This document shows positions 40,072 through 45,675 of a stretch of DNA of 64,000 nucleotides, one piece after another; position 1 is the first letter of the stretch; each line of letters opens with the position of its first letter. The stretch comes from Escherichia coli (GTDB taxonomy: Bacteria; Pseudomonadota; Gammaproteobacteria; Enterobacterales; Enterobacteriaceae). A program made the position numbers and the translations under genes. Below the pieces are notes generated by a model. The model saw nothing but the letters and a program-made list of their open reading frames with translations, searched no databases and was not told the DNA's origin. The stretch lies in the NCBI RefSeq assembly GCF_003334405.1, contig NZ_QOWM01000002.1. One strand, written 5' to 3'.

Positions 40072-41244
40072 TTACTGCTTCAGAGTAGCAAATGCCTGAA
40101 TGATGGCATCGATTTGCTCACGACTGTGAGCAGCGTTTACGCTACAGCGCAGCAGCGTGATGCCTGCAGGCGCGGCAGGTGGCAGGATAAGATTCACATA
40201 AACGCCCAGCGAAATAAGCTCGCGCCAGATGCGTAAACCGTCCTCTTTCGAACCGATTATTACCGGCACTACCGGGCTAATATGTGAACTTAACTCATAA
40301 CCCAGTTTTTGCAGACCGTCATACAGATGGTTGGCATTATCCATCAGCTTTTGCCGCAGCTCTGGTTGTGTGGCAATAGTTCTTAACGACGAGCGCACGG
40401 TCGCAATGCAGGACGGAGAAGGAGAGGCGGTAAAAATATACGGGCGGCTGCCGTAGCGCAGCACTTCCATCGCTTCCGAACCGACAGCAAAACCGCCAAT
40501 CGAGGCCAGACTTTTACTGAAGGTGCCAACGATAATATCCACATCATCTTCAACGCCGACAGCTTCAGCCAGTCCGCGCCCCGTTGCGCCTAACACGCCA
40601 AACGAATGCGCTTCATCGACAATCAAATAACCACCGAGACGACGTTTGATATCAACAATTTCCGCTAACGGCGCAACGTCACCGAGCATGCTGTAGATAC
40701 CCTCAACGATGATAATCGCCTCTTTCGCCCGTTCACCGAGGCGAACCATGCGCCGTTCCAGATCTTTAGCATCGTTATGGCGGAAACGAATAATTTCCGC
40801 GCCACCGAGAGAACAGGCGTCATAAATACTGGCGTGGCTGTCGGCATCCAGTAACACCACGGCGTTATGGTCGGCAAGTGCGCTGATGACGCCTAAATTA
40901 GCGGTATAACCGGTTGAAAAAACGATAGCGGTAGGGCGATTGAAAAACTCGGCAATCTCTTTCTCTAACGCCAGGTGCGGCGCATAACTGCCGTTTGCCA
41001 TACGAGAACCGGTGGTGCCGGTACCTTGGGCCGCTAACGCGGCCTGACCTTCGCTGATGGCATCATGATTAAAGGTTAAACCGAGATAATTATTGGTCCC
41101 GGCCAGAATCACTTTTTTATTGCCGATCCGGCCTTCGGTGGCGGAATACACTTCATCAATACAGGTGCCAAACGGTGTTAACCCGTTGTCACTAAATTGC
41201 AGTCGCTCGCCAGCAAGGCGCGCATATTTATCGTATAGCCCCAT
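40072..41244 (-). CDS. Alpha-oxoamine synthase family PLP enzyme (serine palmitoyltransferase / AONS / CqsA-like)
   Basis: 390-aa ORF with the AOS-family fold signature, including the PLP-lysine region (GTFSKSLAS) and the DEAHSFGVLG block. Confidence 0.85.
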   Translation of the reverse strand: MGLYDKYARLAGERLQFSDNGLTPFGTCIDEVYSATEGRIGNKKVILAGTNNYLGLTFNHDAISEGQAALAAQGTGTTGSRMANGSYAPHLALEKEIAEFFNRPTAIVFSTGYTANLGVISALADHNAVVLLDADSHASIYDACSLGGAEIIRFRHNDAKDLERRMVRLGERAKEAIIIVEGIYSMLGDVAPLAEIVDIKRRLGGYLIVDEAHSFGVLGATGRGLAEAVGVEDDVDIIVGTFSKSLASIGGFAVGSEAMEVLRYGSRPYIFTASPSPSCIATVRSSLRTIATQPELRQKLMDNANHLYDGLQKLGYELSSHISPVVPVIIGSKEDGLRIWRELISLGVYVNLILPPAAPAGITLLRCSVNAAHSREQIDAIIQAFATLKQ

Positions 41245-41492
41245 TATTTATTCTCCAGCCATGGAAGTAGAGTTTCCATTAATTGCGCAGGGGTTTTGAC
41301 ATCCAGCAGAATATTAATAGGAATGGAAATATCGAATCTGTCTTCCAGCATCATTAAGAGATCCATCACTTTGATCGACTCCAGGCCAAGATCGTTGACG
41401 AGATCGCTGTCGGGCTTAATTTCCACACCGTTTTCGACCAAATCCTGTAAACAGGAAAGGATGTAATCCATTACTATTTCACGATTTACCAT
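41244..41492 (-). CDS. Dedicated acyl carrier protein
   Basis: 82-aa acidic ORF with a phosphopantetheine-attachment motif (DLGLESI). Its stop is adjacent to the AOS gene start. Confidence 0.8.
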   Translation of the reverse strand: MVNREIVMDYILSCLQDLVENGVEIKPDSDLVNDLGLESIKVMDLLMMLEDRFDISIPINILLDVKTPAQLMETLLPWLENK

Positions 41493-41523
41493 AGAAACGT
41501 TAACACACCTTTAAACAAGACAA

Positions 41524-44165: not shown

Positions 44166-44532
44166 GAAAAAATTGGATATCCAAAATAAAATGACAATAA
44201 TGCGGTGGATTATATAGGCATAAAAGATAAATGAGATAGTATTTTCATCAGTGTGAAAATGAACATTGATTTAAATAATGAGTTTGAGTTTTTTTGTTTT
44301 TATTGTGAATGATATTTAATTTATGAATATATTAAGAAGAAGCCTTGTCCGGTCGCCTTAAATCGACAAAAGGCATTGTGGCGCTTCTGTGTAGTCTCTG
44401 ACCTTATCGTAATCATTAATAAATACTATTTATTCGTCGTTTGTATTCATTGGGTTGATTATTAAGGTGCCGTTCGTTGCTGTTGCAACCTGTTTGTCAC
44501 CGTTAATTATTTGTTACCCACAGAACAGAACT

Positions 44533-45675
44533 ATGGAATGCGATCTGCTGATGATTAAAATTGAAAAAGTAATTAATAAAAATGACCTTAAGGCATTTAT
44601 CGCTTTTCCGTCATCACTTTATCCCGACGATCCAAACTGGATACCCCCTTTATTCATTGAACGCAACGAGCATTTGTCTGCGAAAAATCCGGGGACGGAC
44701 CATATCATCTGGCAGGCGTGGGTGGCAAAAAAAGCGGGGCAGATAGTTGGGCGTATTACCGCGCAAATAGATACCTTGCACCGCGAGCGTTACGGCAAAG
44801 ATACCGGTCATTTCGGCATGATTGACGCCATTGATGATCCGCAGGTTTTTGCCGCGTTGTTTGGCGCAGCGGAAGCGTGGTTGAAGTCACAAGGTGCAAG
44901 TAAGATCAGCGGTCCTTTCAGCCTGAATATCAATCAGGAAAGCGGATTACTGATTGAAGGTTTTGACACACCACCCTGTGCGATGATGCCACACGGCAAA
45001 CCGTGGTATGCCGCGCATATTGAACAACTGGGTTATCACAAAGGCATTGATTTACTGGCGTGGTGGATGCAGCGAACCGATCTCACTTTCTCTCCGGCGC
45101 TAAAAAAACTGATGGATCAGGTGCGCAAAAAGGTGACCATTCGCTGCATCAATCGTCAGCGGTTTGCCGAAGAGATGCAGATCCTGCGTGAGATTTTCAA
45201 CTCTGGCTGGCAGCACAACTGGGGATTTGTGCCGTTTACCGAACATGAATTCGCGACCATGGGCGATCAACTTAAATATCTGGTGCCGGACGATATGATC
45301 TATATCGCTGAGATTGATTCTGCACCCTGCGCGTTTATTGTCGGCTTGCCGAACATCAACGAGGCGATTGCCGATCTGAACGGATCGCTCTTTCCCTTCG
45401 GCTGGGCAAAATTGCTGTGGCGTTTGAAAGTCAGCGGTGTGCGAACTGCGCGAGTACCGCTGATGGGCGTGCGCGACGAGTATCAGTTCAGCCGCATCGG
45501 CCCGGTGATTGCGCTGTTATTGATTGAAGCCTTACGCGATCCGTTTGCCCGCCGGAAGATCGATGCGCTGGAGATGTCATGGATCCTCGAAACCAATACA
45601 GGCATGAATAACATGCTGGAACGCATTGGGGCGGAGCCGTACAAGCGTTACCGATTGTATGAAAAGCAGATTTAA
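44533..45675 (+). CDS. yghO: YghO, provisionally acyl-CoA N-acyltransferase (GNAT)-like, full length
   Basis: Open frame from 44455; start placed at the first ATG (MECDLLMIKIEK). Divergent from the FAAL operon. The GNAT-like assignment is from recollection of how this family is annotated, not from a motif visible here. My recollection is that the K-12 copy is a truncated pseudogene next to IS5. Confidence 0.7.
   Translation: MECDLLMIKIEKVINKNDLKAFIAFPSSLYPDDPNWIPPLFIERNEHLSAKNPGTDHIIWQAWVAKKAGQIVGRITAQIDTLHRERYGKDTGHFGMIDAIDDPQVFAALFGAAEAWLKSQGASKISGPFSLNINQESGLLIEGFDTPPCAMMPHGKPWYAAHIEQLGYHKGIDLLAWWMQRTDLTFSPALKKLMDQVRKKVTIRCINRQRFAEEMQILREIFNSGWQHNWGFVPFTEHEFATMGDQLKYLVPDDMIYIAEIDSAPCAFIVGLPNINEAIADLNGSLFPFGWAKLLWRLKVSGVRTARVPLMGVRDEYQFSRIGPVIALLLIEALRDPFARRKIDALEMSWILETNTGMNNMLERIGAEPYKRYRLYEKQI

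Follow-up and report, generated by a model that had tools for sequence, protein, structure and literature searches.

Introduction

The locus described here raises the question of whether Escherichia coli encodes a sphingolipid pathway of the kind worked out in Caulobacter, and which genes belong to it. It lies in a window of 64,000 nucleotides of E. coli DNA, and it very probably represents the dihydroceramide (sphingolipid) pathway of this species, a gene-for-gene homologue of the Caulobacter pathway. The initial annotation regarded such a pathway as unexpected in E. coli, a view that has been overtaken, as the same cluster from E. coli BL21(DE3), ECD_02850-ECD_02854, was already published with yghO assigned the N-acyltransferase role (Padilla-Gomez et al., 2022; PMC9386255), and the RefSeq PGAP annotation calls the gene spt. 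The locus is thus already known. What the present analysis adds is modest: the identity of the proteins to the tested BL21 proteins, structural support for a tandem GNAT in YghO, a prevalence figure, and the observation that yghQRST, orf274 and the ytfJ-like gene accompany the spt genes across several arrangements.

Organization of the locus

The features of the region are as follows, with the basis of each assignment in brackets.

32700-33392, minus strand: yghT, P-loop protein (paralogue of yghR/yghS)
33566-34279, plus strand: yghS, P-loop protein (paralogue of yghR/yghT)
34311-35069, plus strand: yghR, P-loop protein (paralogue of yghS/yghT)
35115..36464, plus strand: yghQ, MOP-family flippase (Polysacc_synt)
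36464..37288, plus strand: orf274, soluble 274-aa protein of no recognized family (its start and the yghQ stop overlap)
37300..37860, plus strand: YtfJ-family protein with a signal-peptide-like N-terminus (TIGR01626)
37891-38961, plus strand: lptF2, second-copy LPS-export permease (TIGR04407)
38958-40037, plus strand: lptG2, second-copy LPS-export permease (TIGR04408)
40035..40069, no strand: probable terminator, a hairpin of 16 pairs where lptG2 and spt converge (terminator-like-site scan)
40072..41244, minus strand: spt, serine palmitoyltransferase (longest-ORF coordinates and NF047599 match)
41244..41492, minus strand: acpR, dedicated acyl carrier protein (82 aa, DLGLESI motif)
41524..42438, minus strand: cerR-like extended SDR, predicted 3-keto reductase (orthology to CerR)
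42435..44123, minus strand: aasR, fatty acyl-AMP ligase, FAAL (PGAP start 44123; longest ORF to 44165)
44124..44532, no strand: AT-rich divergent intergenic region with the presumed promoters of both transcription units (GC composition)
44533..45675, plus strand: yghO, orthologue of the bacterial ceramide synthase bCerS (PGAP start 44533; longest ORF from 44455)

The four co-directional minus-strand genes and the divergent yghO proposed from sequence alone are all present as open reading frames at the positions first given for them, and the overlapping or abutting stops and starts ascribed to the operon can be read directly: the FAAL stop and SDR start share four bases (ATGA), the ACP stop and spt start share one (TAATG), and 31 bases separate SDR and ACP. 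The motifs quoted for the FAAL (YTSGSTRFPRGV) and the ACP (DLGLESI) are likewise found in the translations. For each of the five products there is either a strong match to a family or a large number of homologues, by which the frames are to be taken as real genes. Between the PGAP starts of yghO and the four-gene operon lie 409 bases, and the 500-base composition window 44000-44499, which holds most of this divergent region, has a GC content of 0.35. The crystal construct of the FAAL (3PBK) begins near 44156.

Scans of the whole region returned promoter-like sites (6 found, 7.5 expected) and terminator-like sites (7 found, 7.2 expected) at chance level, although the hairpin at 40035..40069 is the longest stem in the terminator scan. 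An Rfam scan of 32000-46700 gave zero matches, and the repeats between the divergent genes showed nothing of note.

Core enzymes and the proposed pathway

The assignment of the alpha-oxoamine synthase is central to the question. The protein scores 599 bits against NF047599, the curated serine palmitoyltransferase equivalog (cutoff 500), and solved SPTs rank first among its PDB matches (375 bits, E 4e-111). In the alignment, the catalytic residues H137, D210, H213, K244 (the PLP lysine) and R366 are kept and correspond to H159, D231, H234, K265 and R390 of Sphingomonas paucimobilis. The suggestion that this protein is Spt-like, for which grouping by family and by active-site residues had been proposed as the check, is hence borne out on both counts: it groups with Spt, over BioF, Kbl and CqsA, and carries the His/Asp/His/Lys/Arg set of the SPTs.

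The neighbouring proteins fit the same scheme. AasR scores 878 bits against NF006624 (cutoff 600), and its best PDB match is 3PBK, 'Fatty Acyl-Adenylate Ligase', at 1308 bits; the FAAL of the window is the protein of that entry. EcFAAL acylates EcACP and refuses CoA (PMC8460268). AcpR is matched by ACP models, all below their cutoffs; it is a small PP-binding protein whose gene immediately precedes spt, and its DSL-like motif (DLGLESI) contains a serine. The SDR contains the Rossmann motif GATGFIG and a YxxxK motif (Y122xxxK126), and NDUFA9 is among its top PDB matches, a likeness also reported for CerR (PMC11087976). A role of the E. coli SDR in 3-keto reduction has been put forward as a suggestion only (PMC9386255).

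All of these proteins have counterparts in the ceramide locus of Caulobacter vibrioides, the sequence of which was obtained via exact-protein look-up. In blastp comparisons, Spt is 53% identical to its counterpart, YghO 44% to bCerS, AasR 43% to CC_1165 (E 1e-156, 97% coverage), AcpR 41% to CC_1163, and the SDR 34% to CC_1164, which is CerR (E 9e-37, 93% coverage). The Caulobacter-type ceramide set that was initially proposed therefore holds, as the five proteins match one for one at 34-53% identity and in the same operon order.

Biochemical information comes from the BL21(DE3) proteins. Spt is identical to ECD_02854 and AcpR to ECD_02853, YghO is likewise identical to its BL21 form, AasR agrees with ECD_02851 at 559/562 positions, and the SDR differs from ECD_02852 by the single substitution V31A. 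In BL21, AcpREc carries 4'-phosphopantetheine, and co-expression of AasREc, AcpREc and SPTEc yields 3-oxo-sphinganine; sphinganine- and ceramide-like spots are also present, possibly from the chromosomal ECD_02852 and ECD_02850 (PMC9386255).

In the proposed pathway, AasR would adenylate a long-chain fatty acid and load it onto the dedicated carrier AcpR, and Spt would condense acyl-AcpR with L-serine to 3-oxo-sphinganine. These AasR, AcpR and Spt steps have been demonstrated with the BL21(DE3) proteins, of which Spt and AcpR match those of the window exactly and AasR differs by three residues. To judge from orthology and fold, YghO would then add an acyl chain in amide linkage, and reduction of the 3-keto group would fall to the CerR-like SDR; the order of N-acylation and reduction is still debated for Caulobacter. 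By analogy with the same organism, the flippase YghQ together with LptF2/LptG2, presumably powered by the housekeeping LptB, may take the lipid to the outer membrane.

YghO as the predicted ceramide synthase

YghO is 44% identical to Caulobacter bCerS CC_1154 (CCNA_01212) over 99% of its length (blastp, E 5e-111), in line with the published comparison (44%, 1e-107; PMC9386255). An alignment of 35 gamma- and alphaproteobacterial family members contains 76 invariant columns. These comparisons support YghO as the bCerS orthologue and a predicted N-acyltransferase. The initial reading of YghO as GNAT-like fared differently depending on the approach. Sequence and profile searches of Pfam, NCBIfam and PDB with YghO gave no significant match, and none of the 35 family members matched Pfam GNAT at E<=0.001, so that no acyltransferase family scores at the level of the sequence profile. 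The predicted structure, on the other hand, upholds it: the AF2 model (pLDDT 87.6) finds tandem-GNAT proteins in a fold search at E 1.7e-15, and on this model YghO can be confidently predicted to adopt a tandem-GNAT acyltransferase fold.

Linked candidate transport and accessory genes

Encoded convergently to spt, LptF2 and LptG2 pass the LptF and LptG models (TIGR04407, 318 bits; TIGR04408, 308 bits), and they are 29% and 28% identical to the housekeeping LptF and LptG, respectively. Both match the Caulobacter pair, LptG2 with 24% identity to Caulobacter LptG2. In Caulobacter, sphingolipid transport depends on that pair, which also binds LptB (bioRxiv 10.64898/2026.04.12.717747). E. coli LptF2/LptG2 have the features of such a sphingolipid-exporter pair, and are predicted to act in transport. 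A profile search of the locus for an ABC ATPase (a second lptB) found none. YghQ matches Polysacc_synt (E 1e-8), has at least seven TM-like segments, and shows 26% identity to the Caulobacter flippase CC_1166 (E 7e-43, 90% of its length).

The remaining genes are less readily placed. The YtfJ-family protein scores 212 bits against TIGR01626 and has a hydrophobic N-terminus, and its gene stays adjacent to lptF2 in a Pantoea-type contig. For orf274, sequence and profile searches of Pfam, NCBIfam and PDB gave no match; it has 141 representative homologues at E<=1e-10, its invariant residues in the alignment are R88, K92, D123, H193, R196 and D238, and four different gene arrangements show it in linkage with sphingolipid genes. 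YghR, YghS and YghT are 34-44% identical to one another, share the Walker A motif GxDGxGKS, and in other taxa are conserved together with orf274 and spt. A profile search against PDB revealed only remote thymidylate-kinase and P-loop similarity for them. As candidates for the missing ABC ATPase of LptF2/LptG2 they were rejected, their similarity to ABC ATPases being confined to the Walker A loop; they were also rejected as CpgB-like ceramide kinases by homology, since CpgB has a DAGK_cat domain and gives no blastp match to YghR/S/T.

Alternative readings, distribution and significance

Alpha-oxoamine synthases serve several pathways, and the nature of the product has to be weighed accordingly. 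A spare BioF or Kbl paralogue with unrelated neighbours would belong to the same PLP-dependent superfamily, yet the protein remains below the cutoffs of the bioF (333 bits, cutoff 426) and Kbl (297 bits, cutoff 460) models while passing that for Spt, its stop and start codons overlap with those of its neighbours, the gene order is kept from Caulobacter to E. coli, and the published 3-oxo-sphinganine assays (PMC9386255) refute this reading, which we regard as having next to no chance of being correct. The ALAS model gives 219 bits. Another amino-lipid was also offered at the outset, namely an alpha-hydroxyketone signal of the CqsA type, a sulfonolipid that resembles capnine and would derive from cysteate, or an N-acyl amino acid; such pathways use related alpha-oxoamine synthases or acyltransferases, and relaxed substrate specificity is reported for Rhodobacterial SPTs (PMC9386255). 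These products are nevertheless disfavoured by the scores and very improbable: the CqsA-type model NF005526 reaches 221 bits (cutoff 428) against 599 for Spt, among PDB entries cysteate acyltransferase (205 bits), Kbl (204) and CqsA (125) fall well behind the solved SPTs (375), and the remaining four genes fit the ceramide set one for one.

A more serious contender accepts the ceramide pathway as functional but silent or conditionally expressed, so that ceramide would normally not be made and would have little physiological role under usual conditions. In BL21(DE3) with empty vectors, no 3-oxo-sphinganine was seen on TLC although the cluster is on the chromosome (PMC9386255), and a literature search turned up no report of a sphingolipid made natively by E. 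coli, two points that also weigh against the main reading; a 2026 preprint depicts "sphingolipid operons" of E. coli UTI89. The AT-richness of the divergent promoter region would be typical of xenogeneically silenced DNA, and K-12-type strains, which lack the locus through an IS5-associated deletion, have lost it without obvious harm. Against silence, the ceramide-like spots in BL21 suggest expression of the chromosomal yghO and SDR genes (PMC9386255), and none of the reading frames is interrupted, with hardly any variation from strain to strain. Moreover, the locus is carried by 4053 of the 5426 complete E. coli genomes (about 75%) and is kept across Enterobacterales through a rearrangement; Serratia and Pantoea keep the region, with core enzymes 68-82% identical. 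This retention argues for selection, and a silent cluster appears possible but less likely than not.

If E. coli strains other than K-12, pathogens and BL21 among them, do carry a ceramide-based lipid in the outer membrane, lipid inventories based on K-12 would have missed a membrane component. Two laboratories are already at work on the question of outer-membrane ceramide in E. coli.

Comparison with known systems

The closest system, the BL21(DE3) cluster ECD_02850-ECD_02854, is the same locus in another strain background, with no difference of substance. The SPTs of S. paucimobilis and S. wittichii (PDB 2JG2, 2X8U) share the fold and catalytic set of the E. coli enzyme, including the equivalent of Arg390, whereas at the position of Sphingomonas R378 the E. 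coli and Caulobacter enzymes alike have Leu. The E. coli protein corresponds to the NCBI 'BetaP' SPT equivalog (599 bits) and reaches 428 bits with the 'AlphaP' model, under its cutoff of 670. Unlike Sphingomonas SPT, it prefers acyl-AcpR over acyl-CoA (PMC9386255).

For YghO, the nearest structural relatives are tandem-GNAT acyltransferases. The model superposes on both GNAT halves of 2WPW, 5KF1, 7Q3A and MshD 1OZP, with TM scores of 0.55-0.62 on the query and up to 0.72 on the target, at only about 12% sequence identity. The acceptor of these enzymes is a sugar or small amine, whereas that of YghO is presumed to be a lipid long-chain base.

Sphingolipids of Caulobacter influence sensitivity to polymyxin, the integrity of the outer membrane and virulence. 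The locus of Caulobacter crescentus (CC_1152-CC_1168) has the identical operon order aasR-cerR-acpR-spt, and both loci encode a MOP-family flippase along with an additional LptF/LptG pair. By blastp within the locus, the Caulobacter head-group genes cpgA/B/C, the nucleotidyltransferases CC_1152/1153 and lptC2 are without E. coli counterpart, and in their place E. coli carries the three YghR/S/T P-loop paralogues, orf274 and the YtfJ-like periplasmic protein; the missing cpgABC and lptC2 count against the main reading. It is possible, though less likely than not, that the unit is a 13-gene island (32700-45675) and not a set of five genes. In it YghR/S/T, orf274 and the YtfJ-like protein would stand in for cpgABC and make or alter the head group, so that most E. 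coli and many Enterobacterales would have a sphingolipid derivative not yet described; YghR/S/T might then be kinases of a novel type that act on the lipid or its head group. The two loci also differ in that yghO is directly divergent from the operon in E. coli, whereas its Caulobacter counterpart lies eight genes away.

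Gene Arrangement

The initial annotation had placed five genes of a candidate ceramide pathway in this region, and their arrangement is confirmed, each open reading frame lying in the window where it had been claimed:

42435-44123 (longest open reading frame to 44165), minus strand: adenylating enzyme (FAAL, aasR), 562-576 aa
41524-42438, minus strand: extended SDR, 304 aa
41244-41492, minus strand: ACP, 82 aa
40072-41244, minus strand: alpha-oxoamine synthase (spt), 390 aa
44533-45675 (PGAP start), divergent from the four minus-strand genes: yghO

The stops and starts of the four-gene set overlap or abut as described: the SDR start overlaps the FAAL stop by four bases (ATGA), the spt start and the ACP stop share one base (TAATG), and the gap between SDR and ACP is only 31 bases. 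The region between FAAL and the divergent yghO measures 409 bases, most of it spanned by a composition window (44000-44499) with a GC content of 0.35, and a 16-pair hairpin (40035-40069) lies between the spt stop and the convergent upstream operon.

Identity of the Pathway Proteins

The interpretation of the locus as a ceramide pathway is supported by comparison with the region CC_1152-CC_1168 retrieved from Caulobacter vibrioides, in which all five proteins find their match at 34-53% identity (blastp). The operon order aasR-cerR-acpR-spt is the same in Caulobacter and E. coli.

Matches of E. coli proteins in the Caulobacter region (blastp)
Spt: CC_1162 Spt, 53% identity, E 2e-147
FAAL: CC_1165 AasR, 43% identity, E 1e-156
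YghO: CC_1154 bCerS, 44% identity, 99% coverage, E 5e-111
ACP: CC_1163 AcpR, 41% identity, E 2e-11
SDR: CC_1164 CerR, 34% identity, E 9e-37
YghQ: CC_1166 flippase, 26% identity, E 7e-43
LptG2: CC_1155, 24% identity, E 2e-16
LptF2: CC_1156, 27% identity, E 3e-8

Whether the alpha-oxoamine synthase belongs with Spt or with BioF, Kbl or CqsA is answered in favor of Spt, as it scores 599 bits on the NCBI serine palmitoyltransferase equivalog NF047599 (cutoff 500) and the rival models all stay under their own cutoffs (bioF 333, Kbl 297, CqsA-type 221 and ALAS 219 bits). Among solved structures the Sphingomonas SPTs come first (E 4e-111), with cysteate acyltransferase, Kbl, BioF and CqsA ranking far below. 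The PLP lysine is conserved, as are the catalytic His, Asp, His and Arg. Residue 354 of Spt (40072-41244), which aligns with the serine-carboxylate contact R378 of S. paucimobilis, is Leu; the validated Caulobacter Spt likewise has Leu there, so binding of the substrate carboxylate may differ in 'BetaP'-type enzymes.

The structure of the FAAL has been solved as PDB 3PBK (1308 bits); studied under the name EcFAAL, the enzyme rejects CoA and acylates its own ACP (Patil et al., 2021; PMC8460268). The SDR carries Rossmann and YxxxK motifs, and its top PDB matches include NDUFA9, an affinity also reported for CerR (PMC11087976). At base 42347, the sole difference from strain G1/2 across 36000-46600, the window SDR has V31, with Ala in BL21 and G1/2.

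The GNAT-like reading of YghO holds for predicted structure but not for sequence profiles. By sequence, YghO has no match in Pfam, NCBIfam or PDB, and at E<=0.1 just 3 of 35 family members hit the Pfam model for GNAT. The AlphaFold2 model, built from an alignment of 35 gamma/alpha sequences, has high confidence (pLDDT 87.6, pTM 0.86). It matches tandem-GNAT acyltransferases best: 2WPW (E 1.7e-15), 5KF1 (TM 0.61/0.72), then 7Q3A, MshD, Eis and FemX.

Distribution and Loss in K-12

At least 80% of 36000-46600 is carried by 4053 of the 5426 complete E. coli genomes. K-12-type strains carry IS5 in place of the stretch that runs from the middle of yghQ to the FAAL gene, and a truncated yghQ and yghO remain. 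In one such strain, 8A (L002, 2116-5481), IS5 is flanked by yghO and by a yghQ that lacks its C-terminal part, and approximately 8.4 kb, orf274 through the FAAL gene, are missing in this lineage. We infer that this deletion is probably why E. coli is not counted among sphingolipid producers.

At 48196-53200, the glcE frame continues to a length of 622 aa, overlapping an autotransporter-like ORF on the minus strand (48982-50301). The sequence from approximately 50352 onward matches a region related to T6SS (KAP P-loop NTPase, VasL-domain protein) that is sited elsewhere in other genomes, and GC falls to 0.29-0.35 at 51000-52000. No single place in any of the 5426 complete genomes shows this arrangement, which may reflect either a rearrangement specific to this strain or a join made in assembly.

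Linked Upstream Genes

Upstream of spt, 32700-40037 contains the P-loop paralogues yghT, yghS and yghR, yghQ for a MOP flippase, orf274 (a family-less 274-aa protein), a ytfJ-like gene, lptF2 and lptG2, with overlapping stop and start codons at yghQ/orf274 and lptF2/lptG2. The complete set is linked with the spt genes in Serratia and Pantoea, and also in a metagenomic contig of 70% GC. In Serratia and Pantoea-type contigs each of the 13 genes (yghT to yghO) has a homologue, and these stay clustered; the yghO/spt-operon block lies on the opposite side of yghT from that in E. coli.

YghR/S/T carry a Walker A motif and are soluble, and their similarity to thymidylate kinase is only remote. For orf274 there are 141 representative homologues at E<=1e-10, and its neighborhood was read in four contigs from less closely related organisms. 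It accompanies AcpR, Spt, a YghQ-like flippase and three YghR/S/T-like proteins on L012 (70% GC), and an AasR-like FAAL lies immediately downstream of it on L013 (60% GC). On two short contigs (L010, L011) it occurs with YghR/S/T-like proteins, spt not being visible there. A 564-aa protein on L011 (1488-3182) consists of two tandem orf274-like domains; its neighbors are YghT-, YghS- and YghR-like genes and a GT4 glycosyltransferase, an arrangement suggesting that orf274 makes up a module of its own with the P-loop proteins.

Directly 3' of yghO, Serratia and Pantoea carry a 120-aa DgkA-type lipid kinase gene (PF01219; L003 11354-11716, L004 11242-11604), a place held by glcC in E. coli; the kinase could be head-group-related in these genera. 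A gene of the Asp/Arg beta-hydroxylase family (PF05118), the family that includes LpxO, adjoins the sphingolipid genes on L005 (13920-14678, Pantoea-type) and L012 (2958-3725), and the E. coli window lacks it; its product may be an acyl-chain hydroxylase.

Comparison With Known Systems

The locus is already published and annotated. RefSeq/PGAP labels "spt: serine palmitoyltransferase" in all genomes listed, and five dihydroceramide genes of E. coli BL21(DE3) were named by Padilla-Gomez et al. (2022; PMC9386255): ECD_02851 aasR, ECD_02852 epi, ECD_02853 acpR, ECD_02854 spt and yghO/ECD_02850 aca. Between the window and BL21, Spt, AcpR, YghO, LptF2, LptG2, the YtfJ-like protein and orf274 are identical, with differences of one residue in the SDR and three in AasR. 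The 2022 study showed that AcpREc is 4'-phosphopantetheinylated, that 3-oxo-sphinganine forms when AasREc, AcpREc and SPTEc are expressed together, and that SPTEc prefers acyl-AcpR; it listed YghO against CC_1154 at 44% and E 1e-107 (Table S2; PMC9386255). In BL21 with empty vectors, 3-oxo-sphinganine was absent on TLC; supplied precursor gave sphinganine- and ceramide-like spots, tentatively attributed by the authors to chromosomal ECD_02852 and ECD_02850 (PMC9386255). Our literature search turned up no native E. coli sphingolipid, and the remaining value of the locus lies in a putative native product and in five linked genes (YghR/S/T, orf274, YtfJ-like).

A 2026 preprint shows for Caulobacter that sphingolipid transport needs LptF2/LptG2, which bind LptB, and draws the "sphingolipid operons" of E. 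coli UTI89 in its Figure 2B (bioRxiv 10.64898/2026.04.12.717747). By blastp, YghR/S/T, orf274 and the YtfJ-like protein have no counterpart in the CC_1152-CC_1168 locus, nor do Caulobacter cpgABC, the nucleotidyltransferases and lptC2 in the E. coli locus. These non-shared genes fit, without proving it, a head-group chemistry in E. coli that differs from that of Caulobacter.
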